Positions 39,546 to 56,029 of a stretch of DNA of 64,000 bases are shown here, piece by piece. The DNA comes from Patescibacteria group bacterium. GTDB taxonomy: Bacteria; Patescibacteriota; Minisyncoccia; UBA6257; 1-14-0-10-40-38. The stretch is from contig JBBTRX010000002.1 of assembly GCA_038064975.1 (NCBI GenBank), positions 128,880-192,879 of the forward strand, in the 5' to 3' direction. The position numbers and the translations under genes were made by a program. Every line of letters starts with the position of its first letter. Within the stretch, counting starts at the first letter, position 1. The notes beneath the pieces are model-generated. The model saw only the letters and a list, made by a program, of their open reading frames with translations. It was not told the DNA's origin and did not search any database.

Positions 39546-40139
39546 ATGAAAGAAAGCATCAAGGTCGCGCTAGTTATTGTAATAGTATCTGTAGGTATAG
39601 TATTTGCGGCAACGTATCTCGTTGCTAGCGAGACTTTTATGCCCCCAGAGTTCACGAGTGCGAGAATAGAAGGAGCGCGCCTTGCCGGGGAGATTGTGGC
39701 GCTTGCAGACAGTTCCCTTGCAAACCTTGAAGCGGTCTATCGTTACAATGCGAATAAAGATACGCAGGCAGCACTTGTTGTCGTTTCTCAAGAGATTTTA
39801 AAAATGAAAGAGATGCAAACTAAGGCCATTGGTCTTTCTACCGAGCTTGAAAAAATGGCCCGCTCGCTTGAACAAATCAAGCCGAATAAGGCAAAGATTC
39901 TTGCCACTGAGGCAGTAAGTTCGGAAATTGCGCTGGTAAGTCACTTAATTTCATACAACGATTATCTCTCACAGCTTTTTCACTCACTGAAAAATAGCAT
40001 AGAGGCGCCGCATCTTGGTCCCGGACAGAACATTGAAGTTCTCGTTGCTAAAATCAATGAAGAAACTGCGACTATCAACGAGCTTGATCGCCGCTTCAAT
40101 GCTACACTTGTTGAGTTTGATCAGGTCTTCAGTAATTAA
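39546..40139 (+). CDS. hypothetical membrane-anchored protein
   Basis: Start MKESIKVALVIVIVSVGIVFAATYL gives an N-terminal TM. The upstream part of the listed ORF overlaps tRNA-Gly and is not coding. Confidence 0.4.
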   Translation: MKESIKVALVIVIVSVGIVFAATYLVASETFMPPEFTSARIEGARLAGEIVALADSSLANLEAVYRYNANKDTQAALVVVSQEILKMKEMQTKAIGLSTELEKMARSLEQIKPNKAKILATEAVSSEIALVSHLISYNDYLSQLFHSLKNSIEAPHLGPGQNIEVLVAKINEETATINELDRRFNATLVEFDQVFSN

Positions 40140-40148
40140 CTTGTTTTC

Positions 40149-40222
40149 CGGAGTGTAGTATAGCGGTAGTACGCGTGCTTTGGGAGCACGTAGCCCGGGT
40201 TCGATTCCCGGCACTCCGACCA
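40149..40222 (+). tRNA. tRNA-Pro (anticodon TGG), CCA encoded
   Basis: CGGAGTGTAGTATAGCGGTAGTACGCGTGCTTTGGGAGCACGTAGCCCGGGTTCGATTCCCGGCACTCCGACCA. Acceptor stem CGGAGTG/CACTCCG and anticodon loop TTTGGGA. Confidence 0.8.
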
Positions 40223-40236
40223 ATTAAAATCTTTTC

Positions 40237-40316
40237 GGGAATAGAACGGGAAAGGGGTCGGGAAAATCGGGAGTTTTCCCGAAGCGGAAGTTATTGAACC
40301 GCTGGGTTTCAAAGAG
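40237..40316 (+). repeat. tRNA-linked about 80-nt repeat, copy 1 (after tRNA-Pro)
   Basis: GAACGGGAAAGGGGTCGGGAAAATCGGGAGTTTTCCCGAAGCGGAAGTTATTGAACCGCTGGGTTTCAAA is identical over 56 nt to the copy after tRNA-Arg. It contains hairpins TCGGGAAAA/TTTTCCCGA and AGCGG/CCGCT. Confidence 0.55.
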
Positions 40317-40339
40317 TCCGGCTCTGCCGGACGATGTGA

Positions 40340-40360
40340 GACCTCCCGGCACTCCGACAT
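40340..40360 (+). repeat. partial duplicate of tRNA-Pro 3' end (att-like remnant)
   Basis: CCTCCCGGCACTCCGACATCG matches the tRNA-Pro 3' end TTCCCGGCACTCCGACCA over 14 contiguous nt. Confidence 0.4.
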
Positions 40361-40433
40361 CGTAAGTAATCTCAGGGCTCTTTTCTTTTCTTGAACAAGA
40401 GCTGAAATAACGCTACTCTTGAAACTGTTATCT

Positions 40434-40505
40434 GTCCTCGTAGCTTAATGGATAAAGCAGGACTCTTCTAAGGTCTTGATGGGGGTTCGATTCCCTCCGA
40501 GGACA
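40434..40505 (+). tRNA. tRNA-Arg (anticodon TCT)
   Basis: GTCCTCGTAGCTTAATGGATAAAGCAGGACTCTTCTAAGGTCTTGATGGGGGTTCGATTCCCTCCGAGGACA. Anticodon loop CTTCTAA. Confidence 0.8.
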
Positions 40506-40512
40506 CAATCAA

Positions 40513-40593
40513 GGAATCGAACGGGAAAGGGGTCGGGAAAATCGGGAGTTTTCCCGAAGCGGAAGTTATTGAAACCGCTGGGTTTCAAAAGGA
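40513..40593 (+). repeat. tRNA-linked about 80-nt repeat, copy 2 (after tRNA-Arg)
   Basis: Near-identical to the 40237-40316 copy. Confidence 0.55.
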
Positions 40594-40651
40594 GCAAAGC
40601 GCCGCGTGAGCTTCTCTCCGAGGAAACAACGATTAAAATCTCACCTCTATT

Positions 40652-41266
40652 ATGCATAAGAAACAAAACATAACGAAAAAATATTACGAAAAGAACGCCT
40701 TGCGTTGGGCGGAAGTCAAAACAAATTCTTTTGTTCATGAAAAGCAATTTAAGGAATTTATTAAATATCTTCCCAATGAGGGCAATGTTTTAGATATCGG
40801 CTGTGCTTATGGCATTCATATCCCTCTTTTTCTCGGCATTGGCAGAAAACTCAAATATGAAGGTATGGATATAACTCAGGCAATGCTTAAACTCGCTCGT
40901 TCTCGGTATCCACAGCTATCATTTCAATACGGCGACATAGCCGATAGTAAAACCCTTCCTCATAAGAAATATGATGGATTCTGGGCTGCGTCGGTATTAA
41001 TGCATGTCCCGCTTGAATTATGGAGTGATATGTTTGGGAATCTTGAATCAATTACTAAAAAAGGCGGCATTGGATATTTCAATGTTCCGCTTATTCATCC
41101 TAATCTTTCTCCGGAAGAAGACGTACGGCATTTTACTATTCTTAGTAAAAAGAAAATTCAAGAATTACTAGCAGAACGAGGATGGAATATCTTAAAATCA
41201 GGAATGATGGATGGATTCTCAAAGAAAAATACATGGATTTGGTTCATCGTTCGGCTGCCTAAGTAG
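40652..41266 (+). CDS. class I SAM-dependent methyltransferase
   Basis: Motif I VLDIGCAYG and motif post I/II (YGDIAD). 204 aa. Confidence 0.6.
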   Translation: MHKKQNITKKYYEKNALRWAEVKTNSFVHEKQFKEFIKYLPNEGNVLDIGCAYGIHIPLFLGIGRKLKYEGMDITQAMLKLARSRYPQLSFQYGDIADSKTLPHKKYDGFWAASVLMHVPLELWSDMFGNLESITKKGGIGYFNVPLIHPNLSPEEDVRHFTILSKKKIQELLAERGWNILKSGMMDGFSKKNTWIWFIVRLPK

Positions 41267-44095: not shown

Positions 44096-44115
44096 GCCGC
44101 GGTAGCTCAATGGTA
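44096..44115 (+). repeat. duplicate of tRNA-Phe 5' 20 nt (GCCGCGGTAGCTCAATGGTA)
   Basis: Exact 20-nt match to positions 1-20 of tRNA-Phe at 44411, located about 50 nt upstream of the GIY-YIG ORF. Confidence 0.55.
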
Positions 44116-44171
44116 CCTGCCCGACTGAACGAGGTCAGTCGTTCGGGCGGGGAGCGTCCCTTTTGCTGAAT

Positions 44172-44420
44172 ATGTATACTGTCTACGTACTTCAGGATAA
44201 AAATGATAAAATCTACAAGGGATTTACTAATAATCTTGCGCGTCGCTTGAAAGAGCATCGATCTGGAATGTCTCGAACGACCTCAAGAATGGAAGAGTTG
44301 GTGGTGGTTTATACGGAAACGTATAAGACGCTTGCTGAAGCGAGAAAAAGAGAACTCTATTTGAAATCAGCAGCTGGAAGAAGATTTCTAAAAAATAAGA
44401 TAGCAATAATGCCGCGGTAG
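44172..44420 (+). CDS. GIY-YIG nuclease family small protein
   Basis: YTVYVLQDKNDKIYKGFTNNLARRLKEHRSG is a canonical GIY-YIG motif. About 82 aa. The stop codon lies inside the 5' end of tRNA-Phe. Confidence 0.65.
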   Translation: MYTVYVLQDKNDKIYKGFTNNLARRLKEHRSGMSRTTSRMEELVVVYTETYKTLAEARKRELYLKSAAGRRFLKNKIAIMPR

Positions 44421-44482
44421 CTCAATGGTAGAGCGTCCGCCTGAAGAGCGGTAGGTTGTCAGTTCGATTCTGACCCGCGGCA
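44411..44482 (+). tRNA. tRNA-Phe (anticodon GAA)
   Basis: GCCGCGGTAGCTCAATGGTAGAGCGTCCGCCTGAAGAGCGGTAGGTTGTCAGTTCGATTCTGACCCGCGGCA. Anticodon loop CTGAAGA. Confidence 0.8.
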
Positions 44483-44554: not shown

Positions 44555-44629
44555 GGTGCCTGTAGCTTAATGGTAAAGCTCCGCTCTGTGGCAGCGGCGA
44601 CGTGGGTCCGATTCCCATCAGGCACCCCA
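44555..44629 (+). tRNA. tRNA-His (anticodon GTG) with G-1 and encoded CCA
   Basis: GGTGCCTGTAGCTTAATGGTAAAGCTCCGCTCTGTGGCAGCGGCGACGTGGGTCCGATTCCCATCAGGCACCCCA. Acceptor stem GTGCCTG/CAGGCAC with an extra 5' G. Confidence 0.8.
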
Positions 44630-46096
44630 TTTGTGAGTTTCGTGCGCTTTTATGATCCCAGCGAACACAGGTTTCATTGTAAATACTGGCGTTCTCGCAT
44701 TTAGTACCGAGTTCTGAAGTACGAAATTCAAAAATACTCGTTTTTCCTGCGGTTCAGAACTTTCGAAGATTTCAAAAGCGCGCTTACAAATATCAAGCAA
44801 TCTGCTCGCTGTAAGGTGATATTCCTTATCTGCTGAGCTATGTTCTTGCATCTGCTGTAATAAATCTGCCTGTTTCGCTTTATACTCTTTCAATTTCTTG
44901 TCGTACATTTCGGGAGTAATACTGCCATCGTACTTGTCATCAGTCATTTTGCTGATCCGGCTCTCTATGCGGTCATACTCCGTTTTAAGACCGTCCATCG
45001 CGTTACTGTGAAATTCTTGCTCGGCTTCAGTGCTTACGCGTAAGCCACTTACTACGTAGTCAATTCCCTCTTTCGGCAGTCTAAGCTTCTTTATATGGGC
45101 GTAAATGGGCTTTAATAGTTCTTCTTCGGGTACATAGAGTTTTTGGCACTTACCTCGGTAGTTGGTGCAGTGATAGTAGATATACTTACCCTTGCTGATT
45201 TCTGGTGTAATAGTGCAACCGCATACGCCGCATGTCATAAGCCCTCGGAAAATGAAGGGCTTAGCGGCATGCTGAAACGGCTTCTTATTCCAGCTCTCAC
45301 AAACTTTTTGACATTTCAAGAAGAGACTCATCGAAATAAGTGACTCATAATGGTGCGGGTACTGTTTACCTTTCACATCCATCACGCCGTAGTAGAATCG
45401 AGTTTTGAGGATCATGGCGAGTCTACTCATGGCAATCGGGTTGCCATTCCTACTCCCTTTAAATCCTTCTTCTCTCATTCGCTTTGATAGCGTGATTAGC
45501 GAAAAGTTGCCGGTTGAATAGAGTTCGAAAGCTTTAATAACAAATGGTGCTGTTTTTGGATCAACTTCAATCGCTGATTTGTTCTCACTGGTTCTCGTGT
45601 TCAAGTATCCAATCGGGGCTTTAGCAATCCATTCGCCGTTTTTTAATTTCTGTTCATTGCTACGTTTCACGTTGTCGCTCAATTGCAAAACATAGCTGCG
45701 AGCAAACATAACGGCCATATCCCATTGCAAAAGCTGTGAGCTGTTGGCACTTGCCGTTAAAACCAAATTTTCTCGCACAAAGTGAATTTCGATTTTGCCT
45801 TGTTTTCGTAAATCATCTAAAACCACGCTTTCTTTAAAACTTCTTTGAAGGCGATCTACAGTTTCAACCACAAGGGCAATCGGTTCGCCGAATTTTGATT
45901 GCTTAATAACATCTAGGACTGCTTCAAATTTCTTTCGGCTATCCGTTGTCGAACTTTCTGCTATCTCAAAGACTTTCCAAAAATCGAGTTCTCTTTTCTC
46001 GACATATTCGGTAAGTCGCCTTGTTTGCGCTGATATGGATTGGCCCTCTTCGGCTTGTTCCTTTGTTGAAACTCTGGAAAGAATTATCGCCTTCAT
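44618..46096 (-). CDS. large serine recombinase (resolvase/invertase N-terminal domain plus recombinase and zinc-ribbon domains)
   Basis: N-terminal catalytic ILSRVSTKEQ (Ser nucleophile), a central recombinase domain and a C-terminal Cys cluster (CGVCGC...HC). 492 aa. Confidence 0.8.
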   Translation of the reverse strand: MKAIILSRVSTKEQAEEGQSISAQTRRLTEYVEKRELDFWKVFEIAESSTTDSRKKFEAVLDVIKQSKFGEPIALVVETVDRLQRSFKESVVLDDLRKQGKIEIHFVRENLVLTASANSSQLLQWDMAVMFARSYVLQLSDNVKRSNEQKLKNGEWIAKAPIGYLNTRTSENKSAIEVDPKTAPFVIKAFELYSTGNFSLITLSKRMREEGFKGSRNGNPIAMSRLAMILKTRFYYGVMDVKGKQYPHHYESLISMSLFLKCQKVCESWNKKPFQHAAKPFIFRGLMTCGVCGCTITPEISKGKYIYYHCTNYRGKCQKLYVPEEELLKPIYAHIKKLRLPKEGIDYVVSGLRVSTEAEQEFHSNAMDGLKTEYDRIESRISKMTDDKYDGSITPEMYDKKLKEYKAKQADLLQQMQEHSSADKEYHLTASRLLDICKRAFEIFESSEPQEKRVFLNFVLQNSVLNARTPVFTMKPVFAGIIKAHETHKWGA

Positions 46097-48702
46097 ATTT
46101 TCAATTTTTCTCTAAAGACCTTATCAAATTCCTGCTTAGTGGTTGCTTCGTTATAAAACGGAAGCCCAATAAGTTTTAGCCTACCTCTCTCAAATAAGGT
46201 TCTAATCTCAAATTCCGATTCTATTTCCTTTAGAAAATCTTCTTTCCATTTATCCTCAATCAACCCTCTATTGCCTTTTGGTTCGACAAAGAGCTGGTAT
46301 GACAAGGCCTTCTTGCCACCCTTTTCTTTTAGAAACAGGACAAAATCCGGCTCGATTGCTTGCCCATCGCTAAAACGATAGATTTTAAACAGACGTTCGT
46401 TCCTCAATAAATAAACATCTCGGTATTTTTTGCGTAATTCATCCATAGCCTGTCGTACGAACTGGATCAAATACTTTTCTTCAGAAGTCCCATAATTTTC
46501 GTCATACATGTACCAGTCTTGCGTGCTCAAATCGAGCCTCAACTCATCATTCAAGGTTTCGCTCATTGCCTTACCAAATTCAGCATCCTCACCTCTTATT
46601 AAGAATTCTAAAGTTTTTGTTTTGGCTAATATCTTAACTTTTTCGCCATGAAATTCTTTAGTTCCAATATATTCTTTATTACCTGCCTGAATTTTTTCTG
46701 CTAGCTCCTTCAAGACGTTTAGGGCAATATCAAATTTGTCGTAATTAGTTAGAGCATCCAGTCTACCGTTTTTTGCATACACTTCAATTTCAACTAATCC
46801 AGTAAAGTCTTTTGACGTAATAAATTCATCAATGGATTTCAAGTTTGGGAAAAAGAAACGCAAACTTACAAAACGATAAAAATCAATCTTATCTGCGGCT
46901 TTTCTTAAAATATGTTTTTCAATGTTATTTAGTTTGATCGTTTTCTTCTTAAGTTCCTCGGTTATGAGTGAGTCGGATTGATCGTCAAAAACACCGGATT
47001 CGGAAGATTGCCCACTTTTTATTTTATGCTTAAAAAGCGTATCTTGAATTATATCTTTTAAATTCTTTACGCTGGAATAATCTTTTTTTATCTGTTTATT
47101 AAGAAAAATTAGGCCGTCATTCCAAAAAGGTGTTTTAGTAATGTCATTCTTTATGGAAACAGTCTTATTTATTCGATTGTCCGGCGTAATACCAATGTTA
47201 ACTAATTCATTCCGCAATTCGGCAATGTATCGAGAATCGGTCAGGCTGTGATAATGTAACTCTTCTAAGACTCGCAATTCACTATTTAAATCCTTGTCAT
47301 ATTTACGTTTGTCTTTCTCTTCTTGAGCCTCCGTTGAAAACGGGAAATATCTTGCGCCTCGGCCTATGAGTTGTGCTTCAGATATGGTTATACTTCCGGC
47401 CTTACCGTATTTAGCGTCCCTTGTTTCGTAAAGTCGTACGATGTCAAACAAATTCAAAACATCCCAACCCTCGTTGAGCATATTCGTTGTAAAAATAGCT
47501 CTGGTTTCGTTGTTGTAGTCTTCTAAGGTATTTACCGTGATCTGTTTTGCTTCGCTGTCGGCTTTGCTGTTTATGATTAAGCATTTTTCCTTAGCAAAAT
47601 CTTCCTGAATTTCTTTTATTAAATGTGTTGGACTAATTTTGTTGGCTTTAAAAAAATCAACGGCTTGTTTCATTATTCCTCCTACATTACTTCTCTGTAT
47701 TCTAACCATATCTTCGGAATTTAAACCCTTGATCATCTTGTAAAATTCCTGTTCAAATTCTTCAGAATCCTTTATTTGTCTAGACTTGAACAAGATCACC
47801 GGCTTGAGCTGAATTTTGTATTTCTCGGCCACTTTGCGGCGATACTGGCTCAATATCACGGCCTGCAAAGCCCTGCTTCGTACTTCTAAATCAGATTGTA
47901 GCAACTGCACATCTTTAGAGTAACCATCCTCCCTAAAGCTTTTTAAAGCATATTGATAGATGATTTTATCGGCATATTTTTTAGCTACGGCCGGATGGCT
48001 AAGCTCGATGGTCGCCGTATATTCGAGTAGTATATTTTGGCTATTAGCTTTGAAAATTCTATCTACTGTTCTTTCCCAGCTAGTCGCTTCTTCTTGTTCT
48101 TCTTTATCTAATTTTGACTTTGTTAGAGTATTTATATGGTGCGCCTCATCCGATAAAAAAACTACTTTCAGATTTTTGAAATCTTCATATGTGATTGAAT
48201 TTTCCTGCGGTGTATTTAATTTACTGTGCAAGCCTTGAATAGTCGTAAAAAGTATATTTATGTTGTCTGTGTTTGTGGCTTCAAAATTCTCAACGTCCTT
48301 AATCTCAATTTCTCTATCGTAAAAAGTAATTTTTTCAGCAAAAAGATATTTACTAGAGGCCTTATCCAAAAAATTACTTTTGGTTTTTTGTATTATATTC
48401 GTACTGTTCACAAAAAAGATAAAATTTCGATAACCTATGGAATATGAATATAAAATGTCAGCTGCCATTAAAAGGGTTTTGCCGCTACCAGTTGCCATAT
48501 GAAAAAGCAGATGAGCTGGAGCTTTCCGGCCTTCATAGGTAGCTAAATAATACCGAAAACGGGCTATAGCTTCTTTTTGATATTCCCGTATGGAGAATTT
48601 CGGATTCAGATTCTTTGAAACAAAATCAGGCACGTCTTTCGCAATGACCTTTTGTTTGGAAAGAATATTTAACTCATCTACTAGCTTGATACTAGTTTCC
48701 AT
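46093..48702 (-). CDS. res: Type III restriction enzyme Res subunit (SF2 helicase-nuclease)
   Basis: Helicase motif I MATGSGKT and motif II LSDEAHH. 869 aa, immediately downstream of the DPPY methyltransferase, overlapping it by 11 nt. Confidence 0.75.
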   Translation of the reverse strand: METSIKLVDELNILSKQKVIAKDVPDFVSKNLNPKFSIREYQKEAIARFRYYLATYEGRKAPAHLLFHMATGSGKTLLMAADILYSYSIGYRNFIFFVNSTNIIQKTKSNFLDKASSKYLFAEKITFYDREIEIKDVENFEATNTDNINILFTTIQGLHSKLNTPQENSITYEDFKNLKVVFLSDEAHHINTLTKSKLDKEEQEEATSWERTVDRIFKANSQNILLEYTATIELSHPAVAKKYADKIIYQYALKSFREDGYSKDVQLLQSDLEVRSRALQAVILSQYRRKVAEKYKIQLKPVILFKSRQIKDSEEFEQEFYKMIKGLNSEDMVRIQRSNVGGIMKQAVDFFKANKISPTHLIKEIQEDFAKEKCLIINSKADSEAKQITVNTLEDYNNETRAIFTTNMLNEGWDVLNLFDIVRLYETRDAKYGKAGSITISEAQLIGRGARYFPFSTEAQEEKDKRKYDKDLNSELRVLEELHYHSLTDSRYIAELRNELVNIGITPDNRINKTVSIKNDITKTPFWNDGLIFLNKQIKKDYSSVKNLKDIIQDTLFKHKIKSGQSSESGVFDDQSDSLITEELKKKTIKLNNIEKHILRKAADKIDFYRFVSLRFFFPNLKSIDEFITSKDFTGLVEIEVYAKNGRLDALTNYDKFDIALNVLKELAEKIQAGNKEYIGTKEFHGEKVKILAKTKTLEFLIRGEDAEFGKAMSETLNDELRLDLSTQDWYMYDENYGTSEEKYLIQFVRQAMDELRKKYRDVYLLRNERLFKIYRFSDGQAIEPDFVLFLKEKGGKKALSYQLFVEPKGNRGLIEDKWKEDFLKEIESEFEIRTLFERGRLKLIGLPFYNEATTKQEFDKVFREKLKI

Positions 48703-50392
48703 AGAACGCTTTGTTTATTTTCTTTTTTTCTGCGGGAACTTTATATGTAGCGTCTTCCATTTCGCTATAGTTCACATATAGATGGTTTTTATCCAAACTT
48801 TCAATCAATATCTGCTTCTGATCTTTTAACTCAAGCTCGCCGAATTTCTTTTCATCGAATTTATTTAGGTCTATTTCGTATCTGAAAAATGCCTCCATTT
48901 GCATTTTTTTATAGATATTCAATAACTCTTTGCTCGTCTTACCTCCTCTAATTGCCTGCTCATATTCTTCATTCCATTTCTTAAGTTCCATATAAACGAA
49001 CGATCCGCCGCCTTTCCAATGAACTGCTTTAGAAATTCCGGCCTGATCGCCCTTAACCACTTCTTTTAGGCGTGCAACACTGCCATTATCACCATAATCC
49101 AGTTGCTCGATGCCAATATATTGCCTACCCATTTTATGGGCTACGGCGGCTGTCGTACCACTACCTAAGTGGTAATCTAAAACAATATCTCCCTCATCGG
49201 TCGCCGATTTTATAATTCTCTCCAATAAATTTTCTGGTTTTTGCCCACTAAAATCCTTGATTCTTTCTTTCGCAGTAGCGGCTTGTTGAAATGAAATTAT
49301 ATCACCCCAAACATCACCTATGGCCTTCCCTCTCTCAATAACTTCGTCCAAATAAATCTTTTCGCCCCTTCCGTCAAAATACATTCTTCCAGTTTTCTCA
49401 TCTTTTTTATTAAATCTCGCGAGATATTTTTCGCTATGTTCAGTTTTTACTTTATTAAACTTAAGTGATTTATTATTTTTTGAATAAAACAATATTGAAT
49501 CATGTCCTCTAATCCAATTATTGGCAATTGTTTTATATCCTGACAAAACTGAAATATCCCAAATTATTTCTCTTTGGAAATTCTCTTTGCCGAAAATATC
49601 GTCCATTAAAACCTTACAATAGTGAACCTCATTGTAATCTAATTGAATATAAATACTTCCATCATCTCTTAATAATTGTCGTGCGACCTCTAACCTATTT
49701 TTCATGAAAGTCAGCCAAGTGGAATGATTGAAGCTATCATTGTAATTAAATCCATCCCCGTTGCCGGTATTGTATGGCGGATCAATGTATATGAGTTTAA
49801 CTTCACCTCTATACTTCTTTTTTAGCGAGTGTAAGGCCAAAAGATTATTACCTTTTATTATTAGATTATCCTGCTCGGTTATCCGTTCAATTTCATGTTC
49901 TCCTGTTTTGTCTATTTTCTTTATATTTGTTAACACTTTTGGTTCAAATAGCCGATCAATTTCGTCTGGCGCAAGAATTTCATTATAAAAAATTTCATTT
50001 CGTTTTGAATCTTCTTTGTCTTGCCCGCCCTCCAAAACACAATCTTTATATGGCCAAGCTAAAACCACTTTGCCGCTGTCCTTCAGATAATCATCATTCT
50101 CAACCAATCCAATATGATTTTTAAAAGCAGTAAAAGAATTCGGTAAAAATTCTTTGTTGTTTATGAATCTTACAAATTTATCCTGATTAAAAACAAAAAC
50201 TGCCTTAGTATTTATTTTGCTCTCTGTAAAAAAATGCTCTTTGGTTAGACCATTATTCAGTAATAATTCTAAGAGTTCTTTATCCTGCTTTATCGCCAAT
50301 TCAGTGATCTTGTTCTTTAAGATTTTTCCTTCAGCAAACAATCGTTCGTCTTTTTTTAAAATTTTAGCTAAATCGTTGAATAAATTTTGCAT
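48692..50392 (-). CDS. mod: Type III R-M Mod subunit (N6-adenine/N4-cytosine beta-class DNA methyltransferase)
   Basis: Catalytic IYIDPPYN before the SAM motif DYHLGSGTTAAVA (beta-class motif order). 566 aa. Confidence 0.8.
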   Translation of the reverse strand: MQNLFNDLAKILKKDERLFAEGKILKNKITELAIKQDKELLELLLNNGLTKEHFFTESKINTKAVFVFNQDKFVRFINNKEFLPNSFTAFKNHIGLVENDDYLKDSGKVVLAWPYKDCVLEGGQDKEDSKRNEIFYNEILAPDEIDRLFEPKVLTNIKKIDKTGEHEIERITEQDNLIIKGNNLLALHSLKKKYRGEVKLIYIDPPYNTGNGDGFNYNDSFNHSTWLTFMKNRLEVARQLLRDDGSIYIQLDYNEVHYCKVLMDDIFGKENFQREIIWDISVLSGYKTIANNWIRGHDSILFYSKNNKSLKFNKVKTEHSEKYLARFNKKDEKTGRMYFDGRGEKIYLDEVIERGKAIGDVWGDIISFQQAATAKERIKDFSGQKPENLLERIIKSATDEGDIVLDYHLGSGTTAAVAHKMGRQYIGIEQLDYGDNGSVARLKEVVKGDQAGISKAVHWKGGGSFVYMELKKWNEEYEQAIRGGKTSKELLNIYKKMQMEAFFRYEIDLNKFDEKKFGELELKDQKQILIESLDKNHLYVNYSEMEDATYKVPAEKKKINKAFYGN

Positions 50393-50393
50393 A

Positions 50394-50600
50394 TTATTTG
50401 GTTTGAGTTTTATTTAAAAACTGCTCAAATTCTGCCTGATCAATTCTAAACTCCTTACCAATCTTATGCGCCTTCAGCTTGCCCGATCTTATATTTCGAT
50501 AAATGGTTACTACGTCTAACTTGAGAATTGTGGCTAACTCCTTAGCTGTGTAAAACCTTTCTTGCTTCATACTCTTATGATACTGGACTATTGTATACAT
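50394..50600 (-). CDS. helix-turn-helix DNA-binding protein (excisionase/MerR-like)
   Basis: 68 aa with YTAKELATILKLDVVTIYRNIRSGKL, matching the HTH_17/Xis signature. Confidence 0.6.
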   Translation of the reverse strand: MYTIVQYHKSMKQERFYTAKELATILKLDVVTIYRNIRSGKLKAHKIGKEFRIDQAEFEQFLNKTQTK

Positions 50601-50616
50601 TGCCAGCGCATAGCCT

Positions 50617-51732
50617 CTAATCTATTTCTGGCTTATAGGGCTTAAATCTTTGGAGCGCCTGCTTAATTTCTTTAATATAGCCATGACAGGATTTAAGAGA
50701 GATTCGCCTATTTAACGTCTTTAGCTTCGAACTAATCCTATCCCACTCTCTTGTGCTTGCTCTCTCCTCGATAATCCTTCTTAATCCTTTCGCGCCGCCT
50801 TCGTCCTTACAGAATATCTTTAGAGTGGCGAGCTTCATAGCCTCGCCAATTTTCATTTTTCGGTTTTTTCTCAATATGCTCCTCAATATGCCCTGTGGGC
50901 TCTCGTCTAAAGTGAAGATAAAAAAGTTGGGTTCAATATATGTTTCGAAATAGTTAAGCAATATTTTCCGACATACTTCTTCCTTAAAAATGTCTGCGAA
51001 GGTTGGATTTATACCGAAACCAAGCTGTTTTAAAACGCTGTTCATTTTTGTTTTTTCACATAAGCGAACTTCCACGCGCATTACCTCTGGCTTTTTCTTT
51101 TGTTGTATAAAATCGAGCAAGCTCGCTTGCTGTATTTTTTGATCGCTACTATAGGCCTTCTTCTCGCTCTTTTCTAAATCTTTAATTTTGTCATAGAAGG
51201 TTAAGGCGTGTGATGTAGCATAGAATTGTACTCCGTGGCCGCCATTCTTAAAATCCTTATAATCCATCTCCATTTTCTCGGTAAGATTTATCTTTGTAAA
51301 ATCCCTTATAATCCCCATCGTAGGATAACCGCCAGTTATGCGTATGTTTTTTGCTGGATGAAAAGACATAGCACTCGCATATTTTAAAAACTCTTTTTCT
51401 GTGCGAACCCCCATTTCGGAAAGCGATTTCTTTAAAACATCAAGCTCATCCCCGAAATTCGCTTCACTTACTTCTTGTAAGTTGTTGCCGAGAAGGATTG
51501 TCTGCGCCGAAAATTGAATTTTAAGATGCTCTCCTCTGCCAAGTCGATCTATGAGCGTTAATTGTGGCCGATAGATGAGAGCTTTCTTTTCCGCCGCCGT
51601 GGCATTGTTGGCGTATAACCGATAGATGCTACCTCCGTATAGGTTCGGCTTTGAGCCAATCAAATGAAACCGATCTTTTTTTAAGATAGTGAATTGGCTT
51701 TTCGGGATGTTTAAAATCACGGTGTCTAGCAT
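50617..51732 (-). CDS. hypothetical protein, possible replication initiation protein of the island
   Basis: 371-aa basic protein between the HTH gene and SpoVG. The Rep assignment is a weak guess from size and context only. Confidence 0.3.
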   Translation of the reverse strand: MLDTVILNIPKSQFTILKKDRFHLIGSKPNLYGGSIYRLYANNATAAEKKALIYRPQLTLIDRLGRGEHLKIQFSAQTILLGNNLQEVSEANFGDELDVLKKSLSEMGVRTEKEFLKYASAMSFHPAKNIRITGGYPTMGIIRDFTKINLTEKMEMDYKDFKNGGHGVQFYATSHALTFYDKIKDLEKSEKKAYSSDQKIQQASLLDFIQQKKKPEVMRVEVRLCEKTKMNSVLKQLGFGINPTFADIFKEEVCRKILLNYFETYIEPNFFIFTLDESPQGILRSILRKNRKMKIGEAMKLATLKIFCKDEGGAKGLRRIIEERASTREWDRISSKLKTLNRRISLKSCHGYIKEIKQALQRFKPYKPEID

Positions 51733-51758
51733 TTCATTACTTCTTTAGCTTTTAATTC

Positions 51759-52019
51759 CTAGATGAATATCTCTCGTGCTTTGTCGGTAATAGCCTCTTC
51801 AATGGCCTTACCCAGATCACGGTTTATGGGGTGGTAAATGTTTATGTCTTTATCGCTCACCTTCTTCGTGGGATAGGTTATGCGGTATCCTGTGCCGTCC
51901 AATCGGCTATAAATGCCCATAGAGCCTAGATAAAGGCAGTTATCGAGCACTACGCTCGCAAAGCCAATAAGGCCTTCTTTGGGCTTAATAGGGATGATAT
52001 TAATCTCGGTTATTTTCAT
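51759..52019 (-). CDS. spoVG: SpoVG family protein
   Basis: MKITEINIIPIKPKEGLIGFASVVLDNCLYLGSMGIYSRLDG...ITYPTKK...NIYHPINRDLGKAIEEAI aligns with the SpoVG consensus. Confidence 0.7.
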   Translation of the reverse strand: MKITEINIIPIKPKEGLIGFASVVLDNCLYLGSMGIYSRLDGTGYRITYPTKKVSDKDINIYHPINRDLGKAIEEAITDKAREIFI

Positions 52020-52179
52020 AGAGGTGAGGGTTTTGTTTTTTATCCATCTCTAAAAGCCAGCCAAAAGCGCCGAGCAAATCCTGCTTGGCTTCAAAGGCTT
52101 CTTGCTCGGAAAGTTCTCTGCCGGATAGCTTTTCAAGCAATGCCTTTTCGTCTTTTTTGGATGCAAAAAAATCTGGCAT
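52000..52179 (-). CDS. small hypothetical protein (59 aa)
   Basis: Manual translation gives MPDFFASKKDEKALLEKLSGRELSEQEAFEAKQDLLGAFGWLLEMDKKQNPHLYENNRD. It overlaps the SpoVG start by 20 nt and is below the ORF-track cutoff. Confidence 0.3.
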   Translation of the reverse strand: MPDFFASKKDEKALLEKLSGRELSEQEAFEAKQDLLGAFGWLLEMDKKQNPHLYENNRD

Positions 52180-52226
52180 TAGAGCCAGTCTATTCTTTAC
52201 TTAATTTAAGTTGCCTTAAAAAAGAC

Positions 52227-53405
52227 TTAAGTCTTCCCTTTATATTTTTGATTAAAAATAACAGAGCGTTTTTTTACCTCCATCACGTCTCTTAGTCCTG
52301 TCTCACGAATTATTTTGCTATTTAATTGATAAGCGGCATTTTCGAATCTTTTTTCATTTGGTTCTTGATTGGGCTCATATTCTTCTGCAATTTCAGAGTA
52401 GAACCACTCTCTAAAGGCATCATCCGGATTTTTAAAAGCTATTTTTAATAGTTCATATTGATTACTATGATTTCTTAACATAACTTTTACTGACCCAACA
52501 AACAGCAGAGATTTGATAGGATCAAACTTTAATTGAGGGATTATCTCTTGCTTTGGAAGAAATAGTTTGCTCACGAGAGAAGAGTAGTCATTCTTTTCGG
52601 CCTCGCTAAGAAAGGTTTCTTTGATTGTTATATTAGCTTTAGCATTTTTTAAATCTTTCGATGACAAACTATTCGGATTCTTATCCGAATCAACAACCCA
52701 AAAATAGTCCAATTTTATAAATCCTTCATACTCCAATGCTAATACAGTATGGATGAATTGATATTCATTGTTGAAATGAAAATCCATAATCTTACCTTTA
52801 TCAATAATAAAATCATCTCCATACTTTTTATATAGGTCCAATAAGCCACTAAGCATGGATTTCTTCATCTCTTTATAAAGAACATAATTTTTAGTTTCTG
52901 ATTTCAACTTATCTTCCATAAAAAGCTTTATATAGCCGTTTAGGTATTTTTCTATTTTCTTTTCAGTTTTCTTGTCTAGGGCAGTCTCAAACTCAATAAA
53001 TTCGAAGATTCTTTCGAAATGCCTTGTTAAAACACGATCGGCAAAATCAATTATAGTAAACCTATCTTCCAGAATATTCTTAAAGAATTTTACACTCCCG
53101 GCTTCAGGATTTTTCTCAATATACTCTTGCAGCTCCTTAAAATTCGCAGGATTATATTTCTCATAAATATCCCTATGAAATTTGCCGTTGAAAGTGAAAT
53201 CAAGTTGCTTAGCGATCCTGCCTAGCCAAACGTAAGTCGTAGCGTAGTCAAAATTTGGTGGAAGGAGATAGTAGGCGTTTGAAACGGCTTTCTTTGCTGC
53301 TTGTTGGCCAAGCAACAAGTTTTTTAGAATATATAGGTATTCTTCACGCCAATAGGGAAGTTTTTTAACATCGCTTACTTCTTTCATTACATCTTTAGGA
53401 AGCAT
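52227..53405 (-). CDS. hypothetical protein (392 aa), partner of AAA+ ATPase
   Basis: Lys/Glu-rich, predicted helical, no motifs. Its start lies 12 nt after the ATPase stop on the same strand. Confidence 0.45.
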   Translation of the reverse strand: MLPKDVMKEVSDVKKLPYWREEYLYILKNLLLGQQAAKKAVSNAYYLLPPNFDYATTYVWLGRIAKQLDFTFNGKFHRDIYEKYNPANFKELQEYIEKNPEAGSVKFFKNILEDRFTIIDFADRVLTRHFERIFEFIEFETALDKKTEKKIEKYLNGYIKLFMEDKLKSETKNYVLYKEMKKSMLSGLLDLYKKYGDDFIIDKGKIMDFHFNNEYQFIHTVLALEYEGFIKLDYFWVVDSDKNPNSLSSKDLKNAKANITIKETFLSEAEKNDYSSLVSKLFLPKQEIIPQLKFDPIKSLLFVGSVKVMLRNHSNQYELLKIAFKNPDDAFREWFYSEIAEEYEPNQEPNEKRFENAAYQLNSKIIRETGLRDVMEVKKRSVIFNQKYKGKT

Positions 53406-53417
53406 AAAATATTCGAT

Positions 53418-54857
53418 TTACATCGTTAAGAAATATGGAATAGGTACCTTAACAATATTCAATCTTTCGTGAAGTTCTAACTCATCAGAGCTAATAACCA
53501 CACCAAAATCACAACTCACCATTTCCATTGTTTTCACGACTTGGCTAACATTTTTTGAACCCGAACCTATCTCAACTGCTATTCTTAGTTTGTCTGGAAT
53601 TTGAAAGATAAAATCGGCCGTTTCTGCCGCGCTGTGATGAGTAAGAATGCCTACGCCAGTGGTGAGAAACTCGCGATAGAAATGGAGGCCAACAACATCT
53701 TCTAGAAGTATGCCCCTCTTTGCAGAGAAAGCTCCTTTTATTCCGGCAACGCTAACTAAAGCCATTCGTATTGCCGGACTCATAAAGAGATATTTAGCTG
53801 GTTTTCTAGCTGTAGCTGCGCCTGAGCCATGAGCTGGCACACGAATGATTAACTCGGCCTTCTCTAATGCCTCTAGTACATTTACAAGGGTTACATTAGT
53901 AAATCCTAGAATAGAGCTAACCTTGTTAATGCTGAGTGAATCAGCATCTGCCATTACAAAGAGTAGTCTCTTGATAGAGCTTAGGGTTTTTATATCAAAT
54001 TTCCCTAATCCTGTAAGATCCTTTGTTATCATTCGATCAAGTAATTGAGAAATGGCTTCGTAGGCTTGAGGTTGAGTCATTGTTTTTATGGCGAATGGGA
54101 GAGTTCCAACCGTAAGAAATTTATCTACATCATTACTATCTATTTTTTTCCAGTATTCATTTATTTTTGGTTCAATCTTCTTAAGTTCTTCAAAAACATC
54201 CTTAGCAGTCTTTTTGCTATATAATGCATTTTTAATCTCTTGCTTCAATTGAGGTGTCGGAAATACATTACTTTCGATCATCTTAAATTCTCCAAAGCTT
54301 AATGGATACAATTTTTCTATGACCGCTCGTCTGGCAATATCAGGATTTGTTTGTAGAAGTACGGCGGATGAGCCGGTACAGACAATGAAAATATTTCTAG
54401 CTCTATCATGCAAAGCTTTCAGGTAAAGAGCCCAATTTACATCAAGCTGAATTTCGTCTATTAGAAGACAAACAGGATGTTTAACTTGTTCTAGGGGACT
54501 ACCCAGTATTTTTTCATAAGCTTCCAATACTTCCCGCAATGAAATCCCAATCGTAGACATAACGTCATCAATGGAGATATAAATGATATGATTGGCAATC
54601 AGTTGCTCTCTAAATTTATAGTAGATTTGTGCGAGTATGGTTGTTTTGCCAACGCCACGAAGTCCAGGCATAACGACCCAGCGTTGGTCTCTACCGCCAG
54701 ATAAAAATCCCTTTATTAGTTTTTCTATTCTAAAAAACGCATAACGTTTCGGATAGGAAAAATTAGGCGTTGGCCTTGTGTAAGGGAGTAATCGGTCTGA
54801 GTTTTGTTGGATTTGATTCTTGACGTATGCTATAGCTTTTTCGTCCATATTATTCAC
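53418..54857 (-). CDS. AAA+ superfamily ATPase (COG1373-like, DUF4143-type C-terminal domain)
   Basis: Walker A VMPGLRGVGKTT, Walker B CLLIDEIQ and sensor TGSS. 479 aa. Confidence 0.7.
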   Translation of the reverse strand: MNNMDEKAIAYVKNQIQQNSDRLLPYTRPTPNFSYPKRYAFFRIEKLIKGFLSGGRDQRWVVMPGLRGVGKTTILAQIYYKFREQLIANHIIYISIDDVMSTIGISLREVLEAYEKILGSPLEQVKHPVCLLIDEIQLDVNWALYLKALHDRARNIFIVCTGSSAVLLQTNPDIARRAVIEKLYPLSFGEFKMIESNVFPTPQLKQEIKNALYSKKTAKDVFEELKKIEPKINEYWKKIDSNDVDKFLTVGTLPFAIKTMTQPQAYEAISQLLDRMITKDLTGLGKFDIKTLSSIKRLLFVMADADSLSINKVSSILGFTNVTLVNVLEALEKAELIIRVPAHGSGAATARKPAKYLFMSPAIRMALVSVAGIKGAFSAKRGILLEDVVGLHFYREFLTTGVGILTHHSAAETADFIFQIPDKLRIAVEIGSGSKNVSQVVKTMEMVSCDFGVVISSDELELHERLNIVKVPIPYFLTM

Positions 54858-55103
54858 AAGGGTGTTTATTTCACTTTAATATCTCTTGTATATCATACTA
54901 TATAAGTAATTACAAGCACCTGTTTTGCATAGCCTTTATATAACACTTTGATCAGTTTTTCTTATTCGAAACACTTAAAGTTAGACACTTTTTAGCCCTA
55001 TTAAGGTGTGAATAAGATTTATTCTTGGCTTCAATAGTAAGGGAAATAGCACCTCGGGTGACGTAACTTCACTATTGAACGAACGTTCACTATACATAAG
55101 AGT

Positions 55104-55220
55104 ATGCCCAACGATTACTTAAAAGTGATTGTCGGATTTTATCGGAAATTTAAGCGTATGCCTAGCTATGCGGAATTAAAGAAAATATGTTCCGAGACGA
55201 AACTAAAAGGAAAAGACTAG
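55104..55220 (+). pseudogene. LexA-like N-terminal fragment (38 codons)
   Basis: MPNDYLKVIVGFYRKFKRMPSYAELKKICSETKLKGKD resembles the LexA N-terminal winged-helix (xxLKxIxxFYxKxGxxPSYxEL) but stops after 38 aa. Confidence 0.25.
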
Positions 55221-55246
55221 GCTTTCCAATGTTTAGTGGAGAGTAG

Positions 55247-55334
55247 ACGTATGTGAGACTTCAAGAAAACTCAAATCCTCGCTTATTTTCTTCCAATCTA
55301 CGGTTCTAAACACATCCAGTAAGGCCGCCAATCT
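55247..55334. repeat. about 85-bp direct repeat, copy A (downstream end of RHS cassette)
   Basis: ACTTCAAGAAAACTCAAATCCTCGCTTATTTTCTTCCAATCTACGGTTCTAAACACATCCAGTAAGGC matches 62204-62274 with 1 mismatch. Confidence 0.55.
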
Positions 55335-55387
55335 ATTACTGCGCCACTAGGAGTGGTATAAAGTTTGGTAGTGTAATCACCATTCAT
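55298..55387 (-). pseudogene. orphan copy of RHS C-terminal tail coding fragment (MNGDYTTKLYTTPSGAVIDW...) fused to repeat copy A
   Basis: Minus-strand mini-ORF MNGDYTTKLYTTPSGAVIDWRPYWMCLEP. Its first 20 aa are identical to residues near the RHS C-terminus, and the end reads into the 85-bp repeat. Confidence 0.4.
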
Positions 55388-55405
55388 TACTATATTTTAA
55401 TATCA

Positions 55406-55678
55406 CTATTTCTTTCTAAAATTCCTAAATGCAATTTTTAAAACAAATAAGATGAGTATAACTAAGGCAATCATTGAAACAATACTTTCAGTCATGAGTA
55501 TTTTTGCTGATGATTCAAAAATAGTTTCTATTATTAAATCTATTGTTTTAAGAATAAAACTTATTCCAGCAACGATACCAAGCCACAAATAATCTTTATC
55601 TTGATATTTTTTCCAAGCCCAATAACTAGCAACAATGAGGATTAATGGGACTATATATCTTAATATTTCTATGCTCAT
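55406..55678 (-). CDS. small 3-TM membrane protein, immunity-like (paralog 2)
   Basis: 90 aa sharing YWAWKKYQDKDYLWLG with the adjacent paralog (YAWSKKQGKDFFWLG). Located immediately downstream of the RHS toxin. Confidence 0.5.
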   Translation of the reverse strand: MSIEILRYIVPLILIVASYWAWKKYQDKDYLWLGIVAGISFILKTIDLIIETIFESSAKILMTESIVSMIALVILILFVLKIAFRNFRKK

Positions 55679-55690
55679 AAAATTTAATAA

Positions 55691-55759
55691 TTAGTTTGTA
55701 GATCCTGAGATAATATTACCCCACCAATCTATAACTGCCCCGGTTAGTGATGATTCGGT
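55691..55759 (-). pseudogene. orphan RHS C-terminal tail fragment (TESSLTGAVIDWWGNIISGSTN*) directly after paralog-1 stop
   Basis: In frame after the TAA of 55760-56029, it encodes ...GAVIDWWGNIISGSTN, matching the RHS C-terminus ...GAVIDWWGNIISGPKN. The underlying motif is CCCCACCAATCTAT(A/C)ACTGCCCC. Confidence 0.4.
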
Positions 55760-56029
55760 TTATTTTTTTAAATATTCCAAAAATATTCTTATTATAAAGA
55801 AAAAAGTTATTAGCAAAAGAATTGAAGATATTAAATATATAGGCAATTCATATCCTGCAGAAAAATTAGAAAAGGTACGTAATATATATTTAGTCACATT
55901 TAGGATGATAAAACCTATACCTACCCAACCAAGCCAAAAAAAATCTTTTCCTTGTTTTTTTGACCATGCGTAAAAACAAATACTCGTTCCTACTAAATAA
56001 AAAATTATATAGAAAATTATTGAATTCAT
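55760..56029 (-). CDS. small 3-TM membrane protein, immunity-like (paralog 1)
   Basis: 89 aa with three hydrophobic helices, 12 nt downstream of the RHS stop. Confidence 0.5.
   Translation of the reverse strand: MNSIIFYIIFYLVGTSICFYAWSKKQGKDFFWLGWVGIGFIILNVTKYILRTFSNFSAGYELPIYLISSILLLITFFFIIRIFLEYLKK

Follow-up and report, generated by a model that had tools for sequence, protein, structure and literature searches.

A widespread, apparently undescribed family of small insertions behind tRNA genes in ultra-small groundwater bacteria

SINEs and R2-type non-LTR retroelements combine a non-autonomous lifestyle with an RNA-structured body, variable target duplication and an association with tRNAs, and the target-derived flanks of R2 transcripts aid integration. 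Miniature inverted-repeat elements (MITEs) such as Correia, RUP and ERIC are small, ORF-less, multi-copy and hairpin-forming, are often transcribed with their neighbours, and are defined by constant terminal inverted repeats, a cognate transposase and short target duplications of fixed length. Integrative elements that use the T-loop of tRNA genes spare the gene by duplicating its 3' part, and the attachment sites of T-loop-class integrases are direct repeats running from the T-loop to the tRNA end. In the omega RNA of IS200/605 and the bridge RNA of IS110, a conserved scaffold is joined to target-matching segments. Theta or HDV-like ribozymes, small structured RNAs located 3' of tRNAs of many isotypes, lie next to phage tRNAs in gut phages (PMC10879173).

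The elements described here resemble each of these systems in part. They share variable target duplication and conserved RNA structure with SINEs, but they reside in a bacterial host, have no A-tail and no reverse transcriptase beside the copies, take their tRNA-like parts from each target rather than from an ancestral body, and carry an inverted target copy on the 5' side. In size and hairpin shape they are like MITEs, but a classification as MITEs was rejected, because the arms vary by locus and match the local target instead of forming constant terminal inverted repeats, and the duplications, which start from the T-loop, vary between 14 and 85 nt. As in tRNA integrative elements, the same tRNA sub-site is used and the insert lies between direct repeats of the tRNA 3' part (14–25 nt, up to 85 nt), whereas integrase and cargo are lacking and an inverted arm is present together with a conserved RNA core; no cluster of recombinases was found among the neighbours of the 118 distinct copies in the matches listed. 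They differ from theta ribozymes in fold (no Rfam match), in spacing, in their target-derived arms and in occurring in cellular Patescibacteria rather than gut phages. As for omega and bridge RNAs, the two arms could between them pair with both target DNA strands; here, however, there is no adjacent nuclease or recombinase gene, and the arms, being mutually complementary, pair into a closing helix. In logic, the elements are nearest to SINE/R2-type retroelements and to guide-bearing transposon RNAs, and they have the defining features of neither.

The window, by which we mean the whole 64,000-nt stretch of DNA analysed, belongs to a chromosomal contig from a Hainich groundwater bacterium of the Patescibacteria (CPR), and the genes around the site encode RuvB, trigger factor, ClpP, TyrRS, FolB, HPPK and ribonucleotide reductase. 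An earlier note on this DNA had described near-identical repeats of about 80 nt after tRNA-Pro and tRNA-Arg. These are real: 40238–40298 and 40513–40573 agree over 61 nt with one mismatch and, past a 1-nt indel, over 17 nt more (40297–40313 = 40573–40589). The two cores (~80 nt) are 96% identical (95.7%), and a core 33-mer occurs exactly twice in the window, with no third copy and 0 matches in 100 shuffles. The same element does stand behind both tRNAs, but not within 15 nt of each as had been proposed, the sequence GAACGGG starting 21 nt behind tRNA-Pro and 12 nt behind tRNA-Arg. The hairpin TCGGGAAAA/TTTTCCCGA, our P2, proved to be conserved across the family, and the perfect hairpin between the two tRNAs is also present as reported. 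On the other hand, the second hairpin proposed, AGCGG/CCGCT, is not a helix of the family: it contains a single covarying pair, and its other two pairs are unpaired in 35–39% of sequences, whereas the covarying helix is TTGAAACC/GGTTTCAA (P4), with CCGC in the loop. A copy of the tRNA-Pro 3' end was correctly recognised, although it measures 15 nt and not 14: TCCCGGCACTCCGAC, which comprises the T-stem 3' strand, the acceptor 3' strand and the discriminator, is found at 40206–40220 in tRNA-Pro and, exact at 15/15 positions, at 40344–40358 in the right arm of element 1. Two features were absent from the earlier note, namely a short antisense T-loop copy before each core and a decayed tRNA copy that ends the Arg element. 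The latter, CTCTCCGAGGAAACAA, matches tRNA-Arg from position 61 to the 3' end at 14 of 16 nt, and tRNA-Arg 40485–40508 and the right arm of element 2 are 79% identical over 24 nt. The coordinates of all features are given in Table 1. Separately, ATTAAAATCT occurs behind tRNA-Pro (40224–40233) and again directly past the right arm of element 2 (40632–40641), where the sequences compared were CAATTAAAATCT and CGATTAAAATCT; this recurrence may be a trace of insertion order.

Table 1 Features of the two elements and their target tRNA genes, in window coordinates
Feature	Position	Strand	Support	Remarks
tRNA-Pro(tgg)	40149–40222	+	ARAGORN; Rfam tRNA 67.2 bits	target of element 1
tRNA-Pro T-loop-to-3'-end segment ("copy A")	40199 (G53) to 40220	+		
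Element 1 left (antisense) arm CGGGAATAGAAC	40236–40247	+		reverse complement of tRNA-Pro GTTCGATTCCCG, one mismatch
Element 1 core	40248–40335	+	covariance model R1 80.8 bits, E = 2.4e-23; P2/P4 covariation	
Element 1 purine linker GGGAAAGGGGT	40248–40258	+		
Element 1 P2 hairpin	40259–40281	+		followed by linker 40282–40293
Element 1 P4 hairpin	40294–40312	+		one A fewer than element 2
Element 1 variable perfect hairpin GTCCGGC-TCT-GCCGGAC	40316–40332	+		
Element 1 right arm	40336–40358	+		altered T-loop copy GTGAGACC (40336–40343), then TCCCGGCACTCCGAC (40344–40358)
tRNA-Arg(tct)	40434–40506	+	ARAGORN, Rfam	target of element 2
Element 2 left arm GGAATCGAAC	40513–40522	+		exact reverse complement of tRNA-Arg T-loop GTTCGATTCC
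Element 2 core	40523–40605	+	R1 87.1 bits, E = 2.2e-25	
Element 2 P2	40534–40556	+		
Element 2 P4 TTGAAACC-GCTG-GGTTTCAA	40569–40588	+		
Element 2 mini-hairpin GCAAAGC	40594–40600	+		
Element 2 right arm	40606–40629	+		altered T-loop copy GTGAGCTT, then decayed tRNA-Arg copy CTCTCCGAGGAAACAA

Metagenome contigs were searched with an exact 20-mer of the core, ACGGGAAAGGGGTCGGGAAA, and matches were found on at least 119 contigs, mostly from groundwater and sediment; since all of these copies were fetched by one exact 20-mer, this stretch is invariant by construction and the diversity of the family is undersampled. The family is thus present well beyond this genome. De-replication of the matches listed left 118 distinct copies. 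A tRNA on the same strand ends 4–101 nt upstream in 86 of them (median spacer 55 nt), an opposite-strand tRNA occupies that place in 0 of the 118, and the tRNAs ahead of the copies among these matches belong to 17 isotypes. The location of the repeat is therefore not random, and together with an empty site in a relative, described below, it supports the earlier suggestion of a miniature element targeting tRNA 3' ends or a co-transcribed trailer RNA, with the refinement that the T-loop core (GTTCRA) is recognised and not the 3' end as such. Six of the other 32 copies lie too near a contig end to be judged, and 9 of the 26 judgeable copies without a tRNA call have a clear tRNA-3'-like duplication 57–90 nt upstream, indicating that ARAGORN probably missed those tRNAs. 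Viral contigs gave 0 matches to three patterns, plasmids gave no match and phages a single chance-level match; on these scans the element is not borne by viruses or plasmids. These data describe what is apparently a widespread and undescribed family of insertions of ~110–200 nt in ultra-small groundwater bacteria. When a genome collection was searched for a narrow, window-specific hairpin variant with an extra T, one contig only was recovered (L003, CAZBFG010000002.1, positions 1–400, from a MAG labelled Bdellovibrionales). It has 38 identical nt in common with the window variant, including the unusual extra T in the P2 loop, and lies 140 nt from the contig end with no tRNA within 8 kb; it could be a horizontal transfer or a mis-binned contig.

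Every complete copy has the same order of parts: tRNA, spacer, left arm, core and right arm. The left arm, 7–19 nt long, is the reverse complement of the local tRNA from G53, the first base of the T-loop core G53-T54-T55-C56, and agrees with it at 86–100% over positions 53–60, fading over 61–71. The right arm is an exact direct copy of 14–25 nt of the local tRNA 3' part. Compared with the tRNA by position, it is 96–100% identical at 61–74, but only 26–37% at 55–56 and 47% at 59, reflecting a rewritten T-loop in which TC is changed to GA at 55–56, A58 to C, or N59 to T; typical forms are GTGARATT and GTTCGCTT. Because the left arm is an inverted and the right arm a direct copy of the same part of the tRNA, the two form a closing helix, often with tandem G.A pairs that the altered T-loop puts there. 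The tRNA gene stays intact, since its 3' part is duplicated. At about 10 loci the duplication passes the tRNA end into native downstream DNA, terminators included, reaching 85 nt in L121, 71 in L005, 70 in L094, 59 in L047 and 58 in L106. At most loci, similarity breaks off abruptly at the discriminator +1 and none is seen past that point, which could mean that the right arm is under selection and hence has a cellular function, rather than that the insertion is recent. At L047 and L063, the spacer and a second left arm repeat after the right arm without a second core, an arrangement that none of the models tried fitted cleanly.

Evidence for insertion came from a syntenic relative (L123, Paceibacterota, neighbouring protein 54% identical) with the same gene order. 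There, tRNA-Pro and tRNA-Arg lie 2 nt apart and are followed by a terminator, and model R1 finds no element at the site, which shows the copies in the window to be insertions. In another relative (L126, 3805–4147), the 343 nt between tRNA-Pro and tRNA-Arg consist of long perfect hairpins that have no R1 match and are unrelated to the family; the same tRNA spacer is colonised by different small inserts. Cores at different tRNAs on one contig are near-identical (95.7% in the window, 100% in L062), compared with 83.8 ± 5% between contigs, and their arms still fit each its own tRNA. Two diverged lineages are found on one contig in L027, L069 and L022, a tandem second, truncated copy in L031, and truncated copies in L071, L037 and L076. 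In addition, four loci without a tRNA (L008, L034, L043 and L044) have this architecture on the strand opposite to typA, at the 5' end of that gene. The direct duplication begins here at GTCGAC, GTCAAC or GTCTAC (AHVD codons) and spans the start codon, being 39/39 identical in L008, and its first nucleotides recur as their reverse complement in the left arm (e.g. CCCACGTCGAC). The typA sites and the T-loop (GTTCGAA, GTTCAAA) have GT(T)C(G/A)A in common. The target is a T-loop-like core and not the tRNA as such. As the element points away from typA, co-transcription with the host gene is not obvious at these loci.

The conserved core of ~85 nt folds as RNA and consists of a purine linker, the hairpin P2, the hairpin P4 with a tertiary pair between its loop and the linker, and a variable third hairpin. 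In an alignment of 71 sequences (A1), P4 is paired in 97% and has four pairs with compensatory double changes (CG 34/UA 33; GC 30/AU 24/CG 15); its covariation score was 0.227, against 0.085 ± 0.006 in shuffled alignments (0/500 reached it) and 0.02–0.06 in slid controls. The lone tertiary pair, which joins the middle of the GGNGG linker to the last base of the P4 loop, covaries as well (CG 51, UA 10, AU 3). Model R1 recovers diverged copies without the 20-mer, and all but one of these lie behind ARAGORN-detected tRNAs. P2 varies between GGGAAAAC/GTTTTCCC and, in the diverged copies, GGGAACC/GGTTCCC or GGAGGGGA/TCCCCTCC. With the diverged copies added (A2), two-sided change was seen in 13 of 17 pairs versus 5.9 ± 1.0 after shuffling (0/500), in an alignment that was fitted to the model and is thus biased towards its structure. 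The upstream purine linker mimics the P2 5' strand in each variant (GGGAAAG, GGGGAAG, GAGGGGT), and may therefore pair alternatively with the P2 3' strand, suggesting a two-state RNA. Extra hairpins occur only within loops and linkers. Within the helices, G.U (13) is only modestly more frequent than A.C (5), which mildly favours the tRNA-sense strand. The strong conservation and the covariation imply that the core would act as RNA, either as a handle for a trans-acting enzyme or as a product with a function of its own. In the window, no promoter-like sites were found between the tRNAs and the elements; on the + strand of 39900–40800 there is no intrinsic terminator-like site (GC hairpin followed by a T run), P2 preceding GTGGCGG or AAGCGG. 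The absence of both kinds of site between tRNAs and elements fits one precursor. A coding peptide was rejected, as the frame differs between the window copies and the indels are not multiples of three.

No match to a known RNA and no partner gene was found. Only tRNA reached the gathering threshold in a search of the window against Rfam 15; at E up to 10, nothing credible covered the core within 40000–40800, and at E up to 1 no match fell on the element in thirteen typical loci. A literature search, with raw sequence strings among the queries, found no description of the element. The arm is an antisense T-loop, which explains the likeness of GGAUUCGAC-GGG to tmRNA. ARAGORN called no tmRNA, and the sole tmRNA-like match in 40000–40800 is a sub-threshold permuted-tmRNA match of 16 bits over the tRNA-Pro end. 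A tRNA-like domain was also rejected, the 5' arm pairing with the T-loop and T-stem strand without a 7-bp acceptor stem, and a tag frame would be broken by the 1-nt indel and the hairpin insertions. The inserts of 110–200 nt contain no ORF. Clustering of the ORFs within 4 kb of every copy gave housekeeping families only (TypA, L19, GatA, RluD, RecG and similar), the largest being TypA with 11 loci, and no integrase, transposase, reverse transcriptase or nuclease was linked among them. Two further Rfam signals were seen on element-bearing contigs: a near-threshold SAM riboswitch match in L089 (102–209, minus; 43.7 bits, gathering score 44.4) and, in L031 (736–787), a weak match to the type III hammerhead (30.6 bits, gathering score 48.5).

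We think it probable that these sequences constitute a family of non-autonomous, protein-less copy-and-paste insertion elements of Patescibacteria whose core acts as RNA. A spread by templated copying, with switches at short homology common to both arms and any T-loop, likewise appears rather likely. We infer the route from the anatomy of the junctions. A nascent strand on which the 3' flank of the target has been copied would fold back, and the target would be copied antisense down to position 53, producing the inverted arm. Synthesis would then move onto a donor element, where the core and the altered T-loop would be copied, and a return to the target within the T-loop would allow position 61 onward to be re-copied, giving the long target duplication. 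The switches would use the 8–10 nt common to both arms and any T-loop, and every new copy would thereby be refitted automatically to its new tRNA. Such a scheme would explain the lengths of the arms, a T-loop of donor type, perfect flanks of target type and the off-target use of typA; because the left arm lies beyond any standard transposition scheme, it needs three template switches. The altered T-loop of the right arm plausibly prevents the element from being a target itself. Tentatively, the copied intermediate could be RNA, in a SINE-like, target-primed reverse transcription with snap-back by a reverse transcriptase acting in trans; it may also be DNA, copied by replicative template switching. 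Mature tRNA with CCA was rejected as a template: CCA was gained in right arms at 5 loci and lost at 6, and without enrichment such a template is unsupported. A more doubtful version is a self-retargeting mobile RNA, in which the core would be a ribozyme or RNA cofactor and the arms would pair with both strands of T-loop-like DNA or with tRNA, being rewritten at each copying.

The features of the right arm also bear on a reading in which the elements are a family of small RNA genes useful to the host, derived from tRNA operons. In such genes the core would act as a sensor or bind a protein, the arms would supply the closing helix as well as a 3' end resembling that of a tRNA, for excision by tRNA-processing enzymes or for sensing or regulating the cognate tRNA, and spread to new tRNAs would be incidental. 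In its favour, the right arm is kept 96–100% identical to the tRNA through the discriminator between unrelated flanks, and the strong structural conservation, the two-state-looking arrangement of linker and P2, the typA-linked copy in four diverged contigs and the single precursor suggested by the spacers in the window all agree with it. Yet the element is missing from the syntenic relative, truncated and tandem copies occur, and a terminator-like hairpin is kept between tRNA and element at many loci. Moreover, the closing helix covers parts of the tRNA 3' strand that differ by locus, so that no uniform tRNA-like acceptor stem results. A host function can in any case coexist with mobility and does not compete with it as an explanation, and we regard this reading as unlikely. 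The same structural conservation counts against a passive DNA repeat without RNA function, arising at the quasi-palindromic T-loop (TTCGAA) when replication slips or switches template. The palindromic T-loop core, the frequent coincidence of duplication boundaries with terminator hairpins, at which forks stall, and the lack of any enzyme gene associated with the copies would all suit such an origin; it would not, however, keep a core of ~85 nt with compensatory changes in two helices and a covarying tertiary pair, nor confine hairpin insertions to loops over more than 100 diverged copies, and we consider it quite improbable.

Another reading makes the element a self-cleaving ribozyme by which the tRNA 3' trailer would be matured, in the manner of theta (HDV-like) ribozymes in gut phages. 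Ribozymes beside tRNAs have a precedent (PMC10879173), and the element lies behind tRNAs and has a compact conserved fold with a pseudoknot-like contact. Its distance from the tRNA end, by contrast, has a median of 55 nt (range 4–101) and not ±5 nt, Rfam 15 has no matching ribozyme model, HDV-like or other, HDV P1 and P3 could not be mapped by hand, there being no P3 beside the P1 3' strand, and the two target-derived arms and the typA copies would be left unexplained, making this reading very unlikely. Extremely improbable is an attL/attR scar of a phage or island integrated in the tRNA T-loop through a site-specific integrase. The direct repeats from the T-loop to the tRNA end do resemble the sites of T-loop-class integrases, and the window contains a serine recombinase island at tRNA-His. 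But the inserts, at 110–200 nt, are without ORF or integrase, the same core stands behind 17 isotypes with its arms refitted each time, conservative site-specific recombination makes no inverted arm, and the core has RNA covariation.

Our preferred reading, the copy-and-paste insertion element, has several implications. If the arms are truly rewritten for each target, the elements would be a kind of mobile element undescribed in bacteria, with built-in retargeting and a spared host gene. Self-retargeting, if true, would make them a SINE-like or guide-copying bacterial element working without a protein of its own, and perhaps a natural case of programmable DNA insertion beside a chosen sequence. 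The genomes of Patescibacteria are tiny and streamlined, and still the element is found on more than 100 contigs and behind most tRNA isotypes. Its core is a new conserved RNA fold and a possible two-state switch, and could serve as a ribozyme, as a handle for an enzyme or in the regulation of tRNA maturation. The elements also offer a concrete example of tRNA genes gaining 3' appendages. They cause assembly breaks and partial "pseudo-tRNA" signals, and the family merits annotating.

Other small inserts were encountered in these genomes and in the window. A 20-nt palindrome, CCTGCCNGCCGGCARGCAGG, was found at 10 sites in 8 loci, several of them within element loops (L069 2164–2183 and 2892–2911, L032 95–114, L114 6689–6708, and in L029, L040, L056, L059 and L109), with a near-copy in an intergenic region of L123; it appears to be a second insert family, palindromic and tiny. 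In the window, the 5' end of tRNA-Phe is present as an exact 20-nt copy (44096–44115 = 44411–44430), which lies within the ribonucleotide reductase N-terminus as the ORF list counts it. Between the two copies are a hairpin-rich stretch and an 85-aa GIY-YIG ORF (44163–44420, Pfam E = 3.9e-13) that runs into tRNA-Phe; the arrangement resembles the insertion of a free-standing homing endonuclease with duplication of the tRNA-Phe 5' end. Further along, a large serine recombinase gene (44618–46096, minus) overlaps the 3' end of tRNA-His and is followed by type III restriction-modification genes and a gene for an HTH protein. The GC content falls to 0.33–0.38, and the region 44556–56000 is probably an island integrated at tRNA-His.
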